A program made the position numbers and the translations under genes. Shown piece by piece: positions 55,866-62,030 of a DNA stretch of 64,000 nucleotides. Each line of letters opens with the position of its first letter. Position 1 is the stretch's first letter. Origin of the DNA: Escherichia phage P479. Under the pieces are notes generated by a model that was not told the DNA's origin, searched no databases, and was given only the letters and a program-made list of their open reading frames with translations. The stretch is taken from the sequence record MW269952.1; one strand, given 5' to 3'.

Positions 55866-55898
55866 TGATTGGGGCGAAAGCCCCTTGAGGAAAATATT

Positions 55899-56297
55899 AT
55901 GAATATTGAAGATAAAGAAATGCAAGAGTTGTATAATTCATTAACACCTGAACAACAAAAATATGCAAAAGACCTGGGAGCTGCGTTAACTCGTGAGATT
56001 GAACAAATAGACCCTGAAACACACTGGAAGGCGGAAGCAGCAACATTGGAAGAAGCAATTAAGCGAAATGAATGGATTGTCGAAACCAAGATTGGCGCTG
56101 ATGGTTGCTCTGTTGAGGTGTCAGCTGTAGTTAAAGGTACTCATGGTGAAAAATCACGGGGCTGGCATAATGAGGCAAACAAATATATTGTTCTCTCAAC
56201 GTCAAAAACTTATGGTCAAAAGGTTCCTGTATCCAAAGCTATTATTAAGCAAGCTCAATGGGAAGCCAATGAAATCTGCCTCGCAAAAATGAAATAA
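55899..56297 (+). CDS. hypothetical protein
   Basis: 132 aa from ATG 55899 preceded by the conserved TGAGGAAAATATTATG initiation region. Confidence 0.45.
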   Translation: MNIEDKEMQELYNSLTPEQQKYAKDLGAALTREIEQIDPETHWKAEAATLEEAIKRNEWIVETKIGADGCSVEVSAVVKGTHGEKSRGWHNEANKYIVLSTSKTYGQKVPVSKAIIKQAQWEANEICLAKMK

Positions 56298-56300
56298 AAT

Positions 56301-56345
56301 GTTTACATACCTCTGGGAACATGATAGTATGTTCCCTGGATAATA
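56301..56345 (+). promoter_or_regulatory. early promoter plus stem-loop element (GTTTAC, 17-nt spacer, ATAGTAT inside GGGAACAT/ATGTTCCC inverted repeat)
   Basis: Read directly. Confidence 0.45.
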
Positions 56346-56372
56346 AAACATTAACCAACTGAAGGAAATACC

Positions 56373-56966
56373 ATGAATACTTTAAAGAAACTTGTTGAAT
56401 TCATCCGCTCCAAACTGGGTACTGCAATGACAAAAAACCTGTCTATTGAAGACCAATATACTCAAGCGGCTTCTACCCTGATTGACAAGATTACTGAGCT
56501 CCAGACTGCCCACGTTAAGTCTGTTAATGAAGAAAAACGCATCCGCGAGTTAGCGAATGAAAAAGACCAACTCGCCGCTTCAAAAGAGCGTGAAATCCGC
56601 AAACTGATTGCTGATGGTGCAGATGTCCAGGTCCATGCTAAACTGGGTCTCCTGTATCGTCGCACTGCTAAACAACTTCGTAAGAAGGCAGATGATTATG
56701 TTGAAATGCGTAATGAAATTAAATTGAAAGTTAAAGAGCTAGATGACTCTCGTCAGGAACTAGCTGTTAAACTGGAATACATCCGAGAAACCCGTAAAGT
56801 ATCTGCTCTGGGTATTGCGACCGCAGATGATGTTGTTGAAATCGCTGCATTGACTAAGATTGATATTGAAGACACTCTGATGCGTGTTGAAACCTTCAAA
56901 GGCCCACAGGTTGGTGTGGATACCACGTCCGCTGACATTGAAGAATACATCAATTCACTTAAGTAA
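56373..56966 (+). CDS. predicted coiled-coil protein
   Basis: 197 aa, charged heptad-like sequence throughout; no confident family assignment. Confidence 0.45.
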
Positions 56967-57008
56967 GATAAAGGGGGCTTTGCCCCCTAATTGGGAGAGG
57001 AGAAAATT

Positions 57009-57563
57009 ATGAGCTTATATACTGACCTTATATCAAATGTAGACTGGTTTGGCGGTAGTGGCCTTGCTACCGAAACTAATACAGTTCTTTATAGAATCCG
57101 TGGTGACTTGGGTTATTCCAATGATTTCTTAAGAAGAACAACAAGTCGCGGCGATACTACTAAATTGCCTTTTATTTTTGCTTTAGCTGAAGACCTTTCT
57201 TTCGCAGATGCCTTGGAAATTATTGACGTAAATCTGGGTATCCAACAAGCAGAATTCGCTGGACTACGTTATTCAGTGTATGCTTTAAACGAGAGCAATG
57301 ATTGCGTACTTCTTAATGCGGCAGATGATGATTACCATTTAGTATGTTATGTGACGCTAGAGAATGGTGATGTATTTGGAATGGTTGACCGCCGCCCAGC
57401 TTATACTGATATTAAAAATTATGATAAAGCTGAGCTTCTTGATTTGACGGCTGAGTACACATTAGAGAGTCGTAAACGGAAACGTAAGCTTAATCGTTTT
57501 ATTGCTGAATGTCGTGAATATGCTAAAGGGGTTCAAAATGCGAACGTTATATCTGCCAAGTAA
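57009..57563 (+). CDS. hypothetical protein with C-terminal FIAECRE junction motif
   Basis: 184 aa from ATG 57009 (GAGAGGAG upstream). Confidence 0.45.
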   Translation: MSLYTDLISNVDWFGGSGLATETNTVLYRIRGDLGYSNDFLRRTTSRGDTTKLPFIFALAEDLSFADALEIIDVNLGIQQAEFAGLRYSVYALNESNDCVLLNAADDDYHLVCYVTLENGDVFGMVDRRPAYTDIKNYDKAELLDLTAEYTLESRKRKRKLNRFIAECREYAKGVQNANVISAK

Positions 57564-57897
57564 ACCAGAAAAATTTGTATACGCAGACAAGATTGATAAA
57601 GACTTGATGCCTCCATTTGGAGCTTTGTCCATGTGCATCGTTGGGGTTATAATGATGGTGATTTGTGGAGATATGGATATCATCAGTGTTGGAGTCGCCT
57701 GGTCACTAATAATTGCAGCACCTTTTATTACAGTCCTGGGTATGATATTGATAAACGTGTGGCATCAAAATCATATGAATAAAGGATATCGTGGGCGAGT
57801 TAAAGAGTGGGAACAAAAATGTGTTTCCCTACAAGAAGAGCACAAAATTAAATGTGCCGAAGAATTTATTAAGGAGGTTCGTAATGGAACGGCCTAG
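57538..57897 (+). CDS. small membrane protein (two predicted TM helices) with C-terminal FIKEV junction motif
   Basis: 119 aa from ATG 57538; hydrophobic segments. Confidence 0.45.
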   Translation: MRTLYLPSKPEKFVYADKIDKDLMPPFGALSMCIVGVIMMVICGDMDIISVGVAWSLIIAAPFITVLGMILINVWHQNHMNKGYRGRVKEWEQKCVSLQEEHKIKCAEEFIKEVRNGTA

Positions 57898-59932: not shown

Positions 59933-60133
59933 ATGTCTATCGCAAACGAATTAATCAAAGTTCTGAACGAAGCCAAAGTCAACCAACTGGAGGTTAATCT
60001 CCAGGAAGTTTCTGATGGCATTAAAGTAACCATCAGTGGTGATTACGCAGGCGCCACAGAACGTGTTTGTGATTCTCTGGAAGAAGTAGTTTCCTGCATT
60101 AAAAGAGATATTTACGCATACGGTATTATTTGA
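59933..60133 (+). CDS. hypothetical small protein
   Basis: 66-aa ORF with AGGAGAATAAAA upstream. Confidence 0.4.
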   Translation: MSIANELIKVLNEAKVNQLEVNLQEVSDGIKVTISGDYAGATERVCDSLEEVVSCIKRDIYAYGII

Positions 60134-60143
60134 GGAAAATATT

Positions 60144-60311
60144 ATGTATAATGTTCTTATTGTTTTTGTCACTCACCCGCAAGGTGGAGTAAGACAGAAT
60201 ACTTCTCAAGTGGTTCAATTTTCTTCACTAGAGGCCGCCAATCTTGCTGCCTCACGAATTGAAGCGAAAAAATCGGCACTTGGAAAATATGAAGTAACTC
60301 GTCTTTACTAA
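60144..60311 (+). CDS. hypothetical small protein (55 aa)
   Basis: Short ORF preceded by TGAGGAAAATATTATG; below the ORF track cutoff. Confidence 0.3.
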   Translation: MYNVLIVFVTHPQGGVRQNTSQVVQFSSLEAANLAASRIEAKKSALGKYEVTRLY

Positions 60312-60324
60312 TGAGGAAAATATT

Positions 60325-61284
60325 ATGATGTTAGTTATTGGTTCTCGTGCATTACATAACGCTGGTCTGATTGAAAGTCAGAAAATTGAAAACTCTGATT
60401 GGGACTTTATCGCTGACCAGGGTTCCTGGAACAGCTTTAAAACCCAGATGATGGGGCAGCATGTGCATGTGGATAACCCAGATGTTCAAGCTTTTAAATG
60501 TATGCACAATGGTAAAGAAACCTATTTTGAAGCGTACATCGTCCGCGCACTGACAAGTGTTCGTGAGTTGACTGATGAGCTACAAGAGGAAGATTTTACA
60601 TCCAGTTATCGTCTGCTCAAATATGCGAAGGCAAATATTCAGAAAGACCGTCTATCTGGTTTTTACTGGGCGACTCCTGATATTTGTCTGGCAATTAAAT
60701 TGTCTCATCGTTACCTGAAGAACAATCCATTCTTCCTGAAGACCATGAGTCATATTAATTACCTTCGCAATAAGGGTGTTGTTCTTAATGATGAACTGCA
60801 GAAAATCATGCTGCAGCGCCAGGCAGAAACACTGTCATATAGTCACCCTAAACTAGACGTGGGTAAGAAAACTTTCTTTAATGATACAATCTATACCCTT
60901 GACCATGACTCCATCCACGAGGCTGTGGCGCTTGCTGATAAGCCTGCATATAAGTTCTATATGAAGGATGATTCAGAAGTCATGACCTCACGTGAAAAAT
61001 TTGAAGCACTCCCTGATGTTATTAAACTGGCAGGGGTTTATGAAGAAGCATGTGTGCTCGCTCTGGAGCGTTCGCAGGTTCCTAATGAGTTCAATATCTC
61101 TCCATCCGTGAGCTTCCATATTGCGCTGGAAAAAGTCTGCACCTCCATTACTTCTGGATGGTTCCGTGAGTATGCATGGGAACATTATCAGGACGTGGTT
61201 AATATGTATAACACACTGGGTCATGAAGACTATGTTAAACGTTTTAAGGCTAACCAACATTTAATTCGTCCTTTCGAAAAATAA
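60325..61284 (+). CDS. hypothetical 319-aa protein (N-terminal GS...D.D pattern weakly reminiscent of a nucleotidyltransferase fold)
   Basis: Largest ORF in the hyperplastic region; preceded by the conserved initiation region; family not recognised. Confidence 0.45.
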   Translation: MMLVIGSRALHNAGLIESQKIENSDWDFIADQGSWNSFKTQMMGQHVHVDNPDVQAFKCMHNGKETYFEAYIVRALTSVRELTDELQEEDFTSSYRLLKYAKANIQKDRLSGFYWATPDICLAIKLSHRYLKNNPFFLKTMSHINYLRNKGVVLNDELQKIMLQRQAETLSYSHPKLDVGKKTFFNDTIYTLDHDSIHEAVALADKPAYKFYMKDDSEVMTSREKFEALPDVIKLAGVYEEACVLALERSQVPNEFNISPSVSFHIALEKVCTSITSGWFREYAWEHYQDVVNMYNTLGHEDYVKRFKANQHLIRPFEK

Positions 61285-61286
61285 TT

Positions 61287-61330
61287 GTGTACATCCAAGT
61301 GGGACTATGACACAATGGTCCCACAATCAA
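61287..61330 (+). promoter_or_regulatory. early promoter plus stem-loop element (GTGTACATCCAA...; inverted repeat GTGGGAC/GTCCCAC)
   Basis: Shares GTGTACATCCAA with the 54444 element. Confidence 0.4.
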
Positions 61331-61343
61331 TGAGGAAAATATT

Positions 61344-62030
61344 ATGAACGGTCCGAAAACTTTTAATTCTAAAGCTCGTGCAGTAGGCGGATTTGCAGGT
61401 CATATTTCTAATGATGATATTAAAAACGAGCCTATGTTCTTTAACTGTGATTTGAATTTTGCTGCACAAAATGGCGGTCCTATTACTCGTAGCTTTATTA
61501 CTAATCTCCCTGATGAGTGGAAAGCCGTTGAATGTGTATTTGATTCCCGTGTACACATGTTAATGCCTGGCTGGTACCCTGCAATTCCAGGCTTCCACCA
61601 TGATGATGTACCACGTCCGGATATTCCGGTCGGTCAACACTTTATTACCGCAGGGCAACCTGATTATGATAATCCTCGATACCATTCTGAACATATTCTT
61701 GGTCTTGTTAACGCTGATGTGTGTCCTACTCATTTTGCAACCGGAACTGCCCAATTTAGTCAGATTCCTGAAGGCGAACTTATCTATCGCCAGTGGCATA
61801 AAGAAGTTCTGGAAAAAATTGAGTCCAATGAATTAACCAAGTGGGATGCTCCTGACCGCACGTTGCTCCAGTTTGATTGGCAGACATGGCATACAGGTTC
61901 TCGTGCAGTAAGTAATGGTTGGCGCTGGTTTGGTCGTGTGTCTCGTAATACTGACCGTGTTAAAAAGATTACAAATGAAATCCGCGTTAATGCTCAAGTA
62001 TATCTGGAATTCCCTATGGAGGGCTGGTAA
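61344..62030 (+). CDS. hypothetical 228-aa protein
   Basis: ORF with conserved initiation region; His- and Trp-rich; no family recognised. Confidence 0.45.
   Translation: MNGPKTFNSKARAVGGFAGHISNDDIKNEPMFFNCDLNFAAQNGGPITRSFITNLPDEWKAVECVFDSRVHMLMPGWYPAIPGFHHDDVPRPDIPVGQHFITAGQPDYDNPRYHSEHILGLVNADVCPTHFATGTAQFSQIPEGELIYRQWHKEVLEKIESNELTKWDAPDRTLLQFDWQTWHTGSRAVSNGWRWFGRVSRNTDRVKKITNEIRVNAQVYLEFPMEGW

Follow-up and report, generated by a model that had tools for sequence, protein, structure and literature searches.

A recurrent 16-nt early start site on four unrelated genes of a T4-like phage

Start-site elements of T4-like phages

The early-gene start sites of bacteriophage T4, among them those of 30.6, dexA, gene 44 and rIIB, consist of a GAGG/AAGG-type Shine–Dalgarno (SD) sequence, an A/U-rich unstructured spacer of 5–9 nt and an AUG, and lie on the early-gene strand. 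Several described elements occupy the same interval. The RegB/S1 target is an 11-nt single-stranded element, GGAGAAUAAAA (GGAGRAYARAA), and GGAA has been reported to be very poorly cut by RegB (PMC1702504). The published operators of the translational repressor RegA (T4, RB69) are A+U-rich and unstructured, have a poly(A) tract on their 5′ side and either contain the AUG or adjoin it; they often contain an upstream stop codon within the ribosome-binding site, which according to a review may contribute to RegA recognition. Promoter-early stem-loop (PeSL) elements (Arbiol 2010; Comeau 2014) belong to hyperplastic regions, end in an SD and an ATG and are flanked by insertions, deletions and replacements of small ORFs. 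Cassette shuffling at their promoter/SD/ATG end has already been published (PMC2839356, PMC4122927), and experiments have placed PeSL crossovers in the interval from the −10 box to the SD/ATG (PMC2839356).

Here, we describe a recurrent 16-nt start site, TGAGGAAAATATTATG, in a 64,000-nt stretch of DNA from Escherichia phage P479 (MW269952.1; the window). The window is that of a T4-like Gaprivervirus of the SP18/VR20 group; its closest relatives are SP18, VR20 and phage 212 (nucleotide identity of approximately 93–94%), and SP18 and P896 are Gaprivervirus by classification. The 16-mer shares all of the T4 start-site features listed above. It differs from them in recurrence, with four exact copies within 5.5 kb here and three exact and six one-mismatch instances in SP18, compared with one annotated gene and one 16-codon ORF in T4. 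We consider it probable (at roughly 0.75) that the four copies are genuine early-gene translation initiation regions of a T4-like phage, kept by purifying selection over 12–15 nt and inherited together with their cassettes. The 16-mer is neither a mobile nor a novel element, but the standard, strongly conserved early start signal of this phage family.

The four copies and their genes

The 16-mer has exactly four matches, all on the + strand (copies 1–4; 55886–55901, 60131–60146, 60312–60327 and 61331–61346), and no additional copy with up to two mismatches is present in the window. The four sites fall in a variable early region with tRNA genes on one side and gene e on the other. The initial annotation had reported an identical 16-nt initiation region on four unrelated ORFs, with a range that began, trivially, 2 nt too early at 55884, and both parts of this observation hold. 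Every copy terminates in the ATG of a conserved gene (ATGs at 55899, 60144, 60325 and 61344), and the ORFs so opened, of 132, 55, 319 and 228 amino acids, all have homologues in other phages. Their PHROG families all differ (8232, 20278, 2141 and 1843), and Pfam domains (DUF7277 and DUF7275) are found only in the 319-aa protein. The shared sequence comprises a GAGG SD, an 8-nt A/U-only spacer, AAAATATT, and the AUG; identity stops at 16 nt, extending between copies 1 and 2 to 17 nt (TTGAGG...).

Copy 1 (GAGG at 55887–55890, followed by the spacer and the ATG at 55899) lies 33 nt beyond the stop codon of the preceding 101-aa gene and opens the 132-aa gene (55899–56297, +; phrog_8232). A GNRA-type hairpin, GGGGC-GAAA-GCCCC (55871–55884, +), ends 2 nt 5′ of it, and the unit of hairpin, TT and GAGG recurs before SP18 gene 30.6. 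The site is found in phages 212, P896 and VR20, Dhakavirus orthologues carry TTGAGGAGAACATAATG at this position, and the whole 132-aa cassette is missing from SP18 and VR25. In copy 2 the TGA (60131–60133) is itself the stop codon of the preceding 66-aa gene (59933–60133), and the ATG at 60144 opens the 55-aa gene (60144–60311, +; phrog_20278). Homology to VR20 and L126 opens precisely at 60131; in VR25 and Dhakavirus-like phages this slot is occupied by an unrelated 78–79-aa gene with the start site TGAGGAGATAACCATG. Copy 3 abuts the upstream stop codon TAA (60309–60311), the TGA of the motif being the very next in-frame codon, and its ATG at 60325 opens the 319-aa gene (60325–61284, +; phrog_2141).

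Copy 4 (ATG at 61344) lies 59 nt after a stop codon, behind a PeSL-like intergenic cassette (61285–61330, +) with a −35-like TGTACA (61288–61293), a −10-like CACAAT (61311–61316) and a stem-loop (61299–61324) that overlaps the −10 box. This putative promoter is below the scan threshold; the 5′ part of the cassette is homologous to a promoter-like site at 54445. The 228-aa gene that follows (61344–62030, +; phrog_1843) is highly mosaic, and the alleles of the nearest Gaprivervirus relatives are more distant from it than Dhakavirus-like ones. The orthologous site in SP18 and P896 is TGAGGAAAATATCATG, the TGA of which terminates an inserted 74-aa gene. The locus resembles PeSL elements in its hyperplastic setting, its SD and ATG end and the insertions, deletions and replacements of small ORFs that flank it, and copy 4 displays the full layout of stop codon, AT-rich stretch, −35/−10-like boxes, stem-loop over the −10, SD and ATG. 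Unlike PeSL elements, copies 2 and 3 lack intergenic DNA, a promoter and a stem-loop altogether and copy 1 has only a hairpin, and the unit conserved here is the 3′-terminal 16 nt alone.

Selection on the start-site sequence

Dinucleotide shuffles yield 0.00 expected copies of the 16-mer, and an ATG-anchored weight matrix, one of the start-site-aware nulls derived from the 283 annotated gene starts of SP18, yields 0.005 per genome. Under the most generous null, which considers only same-register GAGG sites and leaves the copies themselves in its spacer matrix, the probability of the spacer is 0.026. As the spacer is common to four of the nine GAGG-N8-ATG gene starts in the window, P(≥4 of 9) is 5 × 10⁻⁵ with the copies in the matrix and 5 × 10⁻⁸ with near-copies excluded, values subject to the caveat that the four copies do not count as independent events within this genome, since orthologues from other genera have the same sequence at three or more of the sites. 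The frequency of the 16-mer is above expectation even for start sites, and the reservation of the initial annotation, that an AT-rich genome with a GAGG consensus might suffice, does not apply.

Selection on the start-site sequence is well supported by comparison of orthologues. In 15 orthologues of the 319-aa gene, with protein identity as low as 62%, GAGGAAAATATT plus the ATG is invariant amid variation at 25 of 25 columns from −40 to −16 and at 17 of 20 third-codon positions; the 15-mer GAGGAAAATATTATG is unchanged at this site across five unrelated upstream contexts. Of approximately 27 orthologues of the 228-aa gene that are at least 75% identical, 14 retain the exact 15-mer, in seven or more upstream contexts; homologues less than about 73% identical have lost it. 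SP18 contains 22 matches to the 15-mer with up to two mismatches, all on the early-gene strand and 21 of them opening an ORF of at least 55 aa. Among its annotated starts the 16-mer is exact at three (g55, g319 and alc), has one mismatch at six (including cef, nrdC.6 and g228) and two at seven. The consensus spacer of the 29 same-register GAGG start sites of SP18 is identical to that of the window, and at every position the 16-mer agrees with the consensus of GAGG-type early start sites in this phage group. The exact 15-mer also occurs in T4, at gene 30.6, with versions at one or two mismatches at e.7, frd.3, dexA (two positions) and ndd. In IMG/VR, 114 of the 122 complete ORFs downstream of the motif are at least 40 aa in length, and the proteins fall into at least 73 unrelated clusters.

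The copies would thus be identical because the whole 12–15 nt, beyond the SD alone, is under purifying selection, each start site also being passed on with its gene as the 5′ end of the cassette. Three reasons for such a constraint may be proposed. The best supported is efficient, structure-free loading of 30S/S1 on internal cistrons of early polycistronic mRNAs, where the leading T(GA) would often be the stop codon of the upstream gene, so that stop and SD overlap and translation may be coupled; high translation efficiency, like coupling itself, is suggested by sequence and by the T4 literature. Of the nine SP18 sites within one mismatch, seven sit 10–13 nt from the preceding stop codon, which is the motif's own leading T(G/A)A in five and a TAA immediately before the motif in two. 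All 11 GGAGAATAAAA start sites, by comparison, are preceded by a 64–213-nt intergenic region resembling an early promoter with a stem-loop (one-sided Fisher test on internal-cistron versus promoter-proximal counts, P of about 5 × 10⁻⁴). Sites of the 16-mer type in SP18 mark mainly the internal genes of operons. In the window, copies 2 and 3 share the arrangement of translationally coupled junctions, and copies 1 and 4 are not at such stop–SD overlaps; T4 30.6, e.7 and frd.3 also depart from the internal-cistron pattern. In IMG/VR the TGA of the motif closes a long upstream ORF in only 23 of 118 cases, compared with 12 and 17 for the two remaining frames.

Next in support, the constraint may serve to avoid a RegB/S1 cleavage motif. 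Genes for both regulators, regA and regB, are present in SP18. Like the RegB/S1 site, the 16-mer comprises an 11-nt single-stranded element that extends from the SD (GGA) through the A-rich spacer of early start sites, and it recurs identically on unrelated genes. It differs in having A at position 4 and U at positions 9–10, and since the GGAAAAUAUUA that it contains has GGAA in place of GGAG, it should escape RegB, presumably also in vivo. The exact RegB consensus is present at three other start sites of the window (51615, 55550 and 59922), and GGAGAATAAAATG, the other recurrent start site of the window, equals the published RegB/S1 consensus. The RegB consensus is associated with promoter-proximal genes, whereas the 16-mer is mostly on internal cistrons. 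Recognition by RegA, considered below, is the reason with the least support.

Competing explanations for the shared sequence

The 16-mer may have been kept as a putative binding site of RegA, with the carrier genes forming a co-repressed set on which RegA, once accumulated, would contend with 30S subunits for the SD–AUG interval. We regard this as a tentative possibility, with rather less than an even chance; it is compatible with the preferred reading of a selected early start site and would account for the constraint on the spacer. The 16-mer (GGAAAAUAUUAUG) has every feature of the published sites given above, and often the upstream stop codon as well. The T4 dexA site, a known target, is the two-mismatch relative of the 15-mer noted above, the first 10 nt of the motif equal those of the SP18 gene 44 start site GAGGAAAATAATAATG, and SP18 RegA is 79% identical to T4 RegA, with K14, T18, R21, W81 and F106 retained. 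RegA sites are, however, so degenerate that nearly any A/U-rich T4 start site looks similar, a definition too loose for diagnosis. Other T4 targets have SP18 orthologues (45, regA and dexA) whose start sites do not come close to the 16-mer, the window does not include the regA locus, and the four genes here are accessory ORFs rather than replication genes.

Somewhat less likely, and in our view doubtful, is that the identical start site arose mainly from cassette shuffling and serves as its substrate, as a recombination joint or minimal PeSL-like connector. Crossovers between phages or genes would resolve within the conserved SD–spacer–ATG patch, spreading one start-site sequence over unrelated genes and leaving swapped genes with their expression signals. 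Homology blocks with relatives open at 55885, 60131, 60304–60312 and 61329–61331, at or within a few nucleotides of the first base of the motif, and finish at stop codons; in a synthetic-junction search, most partial matches begin at query base 149 (60131). Sliding identity to Gaprivervirus relatives is 0.9–1.0 up to 61340 and 0.6–0.8 directly after the motif, and identity to Dhakavirus-like loci climbs to 0.97–1.0 after copy 4, placing a recombination junction at or just 3′ of this copy. These block starts and this junction fit the published PeSL cassette-shuffling model. The same reading is favoured by the alternation in the 55-aa slot, which has TGAGGA as its left border and the 16-mer as its right border, by the position of copy 4 at the 3′ end of a promoter/stem-loop cassette and by the recurrence of the hairpin unit of copy 1 at SP18 gene 30.6.

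Boundary junctions are nevertheless general in this region, occurring also at genes with other start sites (56315, 58788–58830, 59291 and 59512), and under any mechanism the junctions that survive would lie there if selection keeps expression signals intact. The left end of the 132-aa cassette indel lies 5′ of the hairpin, outside the motif. Homologous recombination is unlikely to be efficient over only 16 nt, and the precise deletion between copies 2 and 3 that recombination would be expected to produce is absent among 201 phage records. The presence of the same 15-mer ahead of unrelated genes in very diverse viral contigs favours convergence. The modular assembly proposed in the initial annotation is real in that the motif lies at cassette boundaries, but it is not special to the motif. 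Purifying selection by itself does not account for four exact copies among the nine same-register sites of the 64 kb, all four lying within 5.5 kb; recombination may have contributed by giving start-site segments a common ancestry.

It is very improbable that a specific secondary structure or known RNA motif spanning the 16-mer (riboswitch, sRNA target or processing hairpin) is what is conserved. Stable hairpins do lie directly 5′ of copies 1 and 4, the sole stable elements near the four copies, but structure prediction gives no fold common to the four contexts, the flanks of which are unrelated. The start sites themselves are predicted to be unpaired or weakly paired, the two coding-embedded copies folding no better than shuffles (z = +0.8 and +0.95), and no Rfam family reaches its gathering score in the region apart from two tRNAs elsewhere. 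The selection for an initiation-region structure suggested in the initial annotation is accordingly upheld for the sequence and not for a fold; both halves of that interpretation are partly supported, neither being new or specific to the motif.

Composition, in which four identical 16-mers arise from an AT-rich genome with a GAGG preference, is refuted by the shuffles, the weight matrix and the spacer-sharing probability given above, even though the motif equals the consensus start site, the exact 16-mer is common at database scale, about 10% of SP18 simulations under the most generous, circular null share some spacer among at least three of 29 sites and the binomial P for at least three of 29 with this particular spacer is 0.04; nor can orthologue invariance amid varying silent sites be compositional.

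A recurrent start site on four accessory genes

The 16-nt sequence TGAGGAAAATATTATG occurs four times in the window, always on the + strand, at positions 55886, 60131, 60312 and 61331 (copies 1–4), and in each case its end is the ATG of an open reading frame. These ORFs, all on the + strand, encode proteins of 132 (55899–56297), 55 (60144–60311), 319 (60325–61284) and 228 amino acids (61344–62030), respectively, and the same ATG is used by homologues of all four genes in other phages. Each of the four proteins falls in a PHROG family of its own, all of unknown function, and among the proteins only the 319-aa one contains Pfam domains (DUF7277 and DUF7275). 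The initial annotation, which described an identical 16-nt initiation region on four unrelated genes, is therefore correct as written. No further copy with two or fewer mismatches was found in the window, and none arose from dinucleotide shuffles. The window comes from a T4-like phage, whose best relatives over this stretch are phage 212, SP18, P896 and VR20 (approximately 93–94% identity), SP18 and P896 being classified as Gaprivervirus. All four sites are placed in a variable early region that extends from the tRNA genes (53068–53217) to nudE/e (62843–63816) and is rich in small accessory ORFs and in promoter/stem-loop cassettes that recur; the 16-mer here serves four accessory genes that lie at cassette boundaries. 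Although real, conserved and beyond chance, the feature is an ordinary one, the consensus ribosome-binding site of early genes in T-even-type phages. In the best-supported reading, it would act as a standard strong, open early start site that is proof against the early-mRNA endoribonuclease RegB, mainly on downstream cistrons.

The 16-mer consists of GAGG, eight A/U bases and AUG. GAGG lies 8 nt before the ATG in all four copies, which fits the Shine–Dalgarno (SD) placement of about 5–10 nt, and is complementary to the CCUCC anti-SD sequence at the 3′ end of 16S rRNA. In both MFE and centroid folds the motif is predicted to be unpaired or weakly paired in all four contexts. Stable elements are found only as hairpins just 5′ of copies 1 and 4, namely GGGGC-GAAA-GCCCC (55871–55884) upstream of copy 1 and a stem-loop (61299–61324) upstream of copy 4. 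The proposal that the identity reflects selection for an initiation-region structure survives with respect to sequence, the spacer being invariant at the 319-aa gene, and fails with respect to structure. No common fold of the four contexts was found, the two copies inside coding sequence show no folding advantage over shuffled sequence and no Rfam family matches the motif; a shared RNA structure or known RNA family is thus rejected. A repeat element or duplicated segment is likewise rejected, as homology among the copies ends at 16–17 nt. The sole wider homology is the hairpin, TT and GAGG unit of copy 1 (GGGGCGAAAGCCCC, TT and GAGG...; 55871–55901), which recurs almost identically before SP18 gene 30.6 (approximately 129610–129637), indicating a hairpin-plus-start-site cassette common to two distant loci. 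The middle (MotA) and late promoter consensus sequences are a TGCTT box and TATAAATA; the 16-mer contains neither and is probably not a promoter of either kind.

Frequency and conservation of the start site

The 15-mer GAGGAAAATATTATG, a shorter form of the 16-mer, has 22 sites with two or fewer mismatches in SP18, all 22 on the early-gene strand; 21 of them lead into ORFs of 55 aa or more. Among annotated SP18 starts, three have the 16-mer without mismatch (g55, g319 and alc), six have it with one mismatch (cef, nrdC.6 and g228 among them) and seven with two. In T4 the exact 15-mer precedes gene 30.6, and near-copies are present at e.7, frd.3, dexA and ndd; another exact 15-mer lies between frd.1 and frd of T4 (NC_000866, approximately 145751), before an unannotated 16-codon ORF. 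An exact-match scan of IMG/VR with the 16-mer returned at least 120 stretches, a count compatible with chance at that database size, and the scan is therefore used only to establish that the motif almost always precedes an ORF: among the matches listed, 114 of 122 are followed by an ORF of 40 aa or more, and at least 73 unrelated protein clusters stand behind the exact 16-mer. The motif can be of use in annotation as a flag of true start codons. SP18 gp130 (NC_014595) is annotated from an internal ATG at 61638, 30 nt short of its motif-bearing ATG at 61668 (8668 and 8698 in fragment numbering); the latter has the near-consensus start site TGAGGAAAATATCATG and yields the 228-aa product annotated in other records.

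A shuffle null is too easy, and nulls were therefore built from real start sites, with the whole SP18 genome (283 annotated starts) as the source. A simple gene caller recovered 19 of 29 annotated starts, and the SP18 annotation was used instead for all statistics. An ATG-anchored weight matrix from the 234 early-strand ATG sites of SP18 gives an expectation of 0.005 exact copies per genome. In the most generous null, the spacer matrix was learned from the 29 SP18 sites with GAGG in the same register, copies included; the probability of AAAATATT, which is the exact consensus spacer of this start-site class, is then 0.026. Nine gene starts in the window have the form GAGG-N8-ATG and four of these have the spacer in common, giving P(≥4 of 9) = 5 × 10⁻⁵, or 5 × 10⁻⁸ when the near-copies are dropped from the matrix. 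The count in the window therefore exceeds expectation under a start-site-aware null, and the reservation made initially, that the frequency might be that of any AT-rich genome with a GAGG consensus, does not apply.

GAGGAAAATATT together with the ATG is unchanged in 15 of 15 sequences of the 319-aa gene, which represent five unrelated upstream contexts and protein identities down to 62%; in the same sequences all columns from −40 to −16 and 17 of 20 third-codon positions are variable. Of approximately 27 orthologues of the 228-aa gene with at least 75% identity, 14 have the exact 15-mer, in at least seven upstream contexts; some of the others have one-base variants, and the 15-mer is gone in homologues below approximately 73% identity. 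At the 132-aa gene the 16-mer is confined to the Gaprivervirus lineage, the Dhakavirus orthologues having TTGAGGAGAACATAATG. Conservation at these three genes indicates that the spacer, beyond the SD, is under purifying selection and that the start site moves with its gene. The SD-to-AUG spacer in T4-type phages is under base-by-base constraint, which fits start sites that serve as common binding sites of the ribosome/S1 and phage regulators.

Stop codons, RegB and RegA

The leading T of the 16-mer is of consequence: in copy 2 it begins the TGA that terminates the 66-aa gene upstream, and in copy 3 a TAA stop stands directly 5′ of the motif's TGA; at copies 1 and 4 the upstream stop is neither within nor directly beside the SD. 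Seven of the nine SP18 sites within one mismatch are 10–13 nt from the upstream stop and thus belong to internal cistrons with stop–SD overlap. A general role of the TGA as upstream stop codon is rejected: it holds for most SP18 near-copies but for only 23 of 118 among the IMG/VR matches listed, where the other two frames give 12 and 17, and is a lineage-specific habit rather than a rule. Where it occurs, frequent fusion of the motif to the preceding stop codon would permit translational coupling.

SP18 has a second recurrent start site, GGAGAATAAAA, at 11 sites, six times as ACTGGAGAATAAAATG. All 11 are preceded by a 64–213-nt intergenic region resembling an early promoter plus stem-loop, which suggests that they belong to promoter-proximal genes, unlike the 16-mer genes (7/9 near-copies of the 16-mer versus 11/11 GGAGAATAAAA sites; one-sided Fisher test, P of approximately 5 × 10⁻⁴). 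In the window, GGAGAATAAAA(A)TG sites are found at 51615–51627, 55550–55562 and 59922–59932, with the variant GGATAATAAAATG at 55023–55035. Durand et al. (2006; PMC1702504) give GGAGAAUAAAA as the optimal site for cleavage by RegB/S1 and report that GGAA is a very poor substrate. The second start site equals this published optimum base for base, and a pattern search with the 11-nt single-stranded criterion GGAG(or U)RAYARAA finds the RegB consensus in the window only at 51615, 55550 and 59922. The 16-mer itself is rejected as a RegB site; it reads GGAAAAUAUUA, with GGAA and not the GGAG/U consensus, and is predicted from the poor cutting of GGAA (PMC1702504) to be RegB-resistant. RegB resistance, efficient translation and coupling of the 16-mer genes are all inferences from sequence and from T4 literature.

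Sites of RegA, the phage translational repressor, are A+U-rich and unstructured; they have a poly(A) tract at the 5′ end, and the AUG lies within or next to them (PMC3014915). The 16-mer, reading GGAAAAUAUUAUG, agrees with this description, the criteria of which are loose and fit many T4 start sites. Its first 10 nt are the first 10 nt of the SP18 gene 44 start site, and the T4 dexA start site is two substitutions from the motif. As the window does not extend to the regA locus, the evidence on regA comes from SP18, in which the gene is present; the product is 79% identical to T4 RegA and keeps all of the known RNA-binding residues (K14, T18, R21, W81 and F106). These resemblances provide a lead, with the 16-mer as a candidate RegA operator. 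The two classes of start site, on promoter-proximal genes and on internal cistrons, suggest the testable idea of a RegB/RegA partition of accessory-gene early mRNAs.

Cassette exchange and other repeats

The identical context had also been taken to indicate modular assembly. Homology blocks shared with relatives begin at 55885, 60131, 60304–60312 and 61329–61331, which is the first base of the motif to within a few nucleotides, and terminate at stop codons. The slot of the 55-aa gene is alternatively filled by an unrelated 78–79-aa gene with TGAGGA on its left and the 16-mer on its right. In a sliding comparison, identity to Gaprivervirus relatives is 0.9–1.0 up to 61340; directly 3′ of copy 4 it is 0.6–0.8, and that to Dhakavirus-like loci is 0.97–1.0. 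This sequence pattern points clearly to a recombination junction on copy 4. The 228-aa gene (61344–62030) is itself strongly mosaic, the best match of 40-nt windows alternating between various Gaprivervirus and Dhakavirus-like phages, and its N-terminal alleles MNGPK and MNSSK have a distribution incongruent with the upstream context.

Copy 4 closes, on the 3′ side, a cassette laid out like a promoter-early stem-loop (PeSL), a mobile regulatory cassette of T4-type phages: stop codon, AT-rich tract, −35/−10-like boxes, stem-loop over the −10, SD and ATG. The boxes (TGTACA, 17 nt, CACAAT) match at 8 of 12 positions, which is short of the scan threshold, and are homologous to a site at 54445. The SD and start codon at the 3′ end, a hyperplastic region and flanking indels are all present, as in PeSLs, whose crossovers have been localized to the interval from the −10 to the SD/ATG (PMC2839356). 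No convincing promoter is found upstream of copies 1–3, and copies 2 and 3 lack a stem-loop and directly follow upstream coding sequence. Three further results weaken a special role of the motif: other gene boundaries of the region are likewise junctions, the indel of the 132-aa cassette ends upstream of the hairpin and not inside the motif, and none of 201 phage records shows the exact loss of the 55-aa gene that recombination between copies 2 and 3 should produce. In this deletion search a synthetic junction was compared with 50,697 phage records, and each full-length junction match is split in two, the pieces lying 181 nt apart; the 55-aa gene is thus present. Modular assembly thus stands as far as the block boundaries and the junction at copy 4 are concerned; recombination at the start site is real, is already covered by the PeSL literature and, as the cause of the identity, is a candidate only.

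The short gap between the 319- and 228-aa genes is a hot spot of insertion, though empty in the window. The same gap holds a gene annotated 'restriction endonuclease' in phage 212 (8359–9006, fragment numbering) and, in SP18 and P896, a 74-aa gene that has a PeSL-like cassette to itself (SP18 8433–8657, fragment numbering). PeSL-like cassettes are repeated in the window at 54467–54503, 54984–55020 and 55512–55548, and also at 51217–51279 and 51551–51613, each consisting of an early promoter and a stem-loop 5′ of a different small ORF (for example GCATAATGATTCCATACTGAGTTAC... and GTGTACA...GGGATAG...TATAAT...TATCCCATCAACTACTG).

A broader reading, which we consider unlikely, is that a small set of discrete, exactly conserved start-site types are at once post-transcriptional address labels (RegB versus RegA) and cassette exchange joints in T-even-type phages. 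On promoter-proximal genes GGAGAAUAAAAUG would single out mRNAs to be cleaved by RegB/S1; the messages flagged by UGAGGAAAAUAUUAUG on internal cistrons would be RegB-resistant and under RegA or another start-site-binding factor, and the 12–16-nt labels would also offer micro-homology for the exchange of accessory-gene cassettes between genera. A single connector would then encode both regulation class and mobility. The consensus early ribosome-binding site, which is the reading that we prefer, leaves T4 biology as understood unchanged and is of modest practical value; phage engineers could use the 16-mer as a natural early-gene connector that is portable and putatively strong.

Several other repeats are present in the window. 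Four small paralogous genes in tandem (96, 93, 72 and 77 aa; 58234–59286) encode C-termini of the ...SSxxC type and have repeated TGCTAAGG(A/T)... junctions; SP18 and P896 have an extra member, and this variation in copy number among relatives suggests unequal crossing-over. A perfect 31-nt direct repeat (54908–54938 and 55432–55462) lies at the 3′ ends of the adjacent genes 54524–54949 and 54982–55476, the products of which both end ...VQSYASNFRK... and are thus apparently neighbouring paralogues. Finally, the genes at 50310, 50645, 50926, 51289 and 63820 have a similar 5′ coding start of approximately 32 nt (ATGAAAACTTATCAAGAATTT..., MKTYQEF...); as some of them are annotated as internal head proteins in relatives, this start may be an N-terminal targeting leader common to the five genes.
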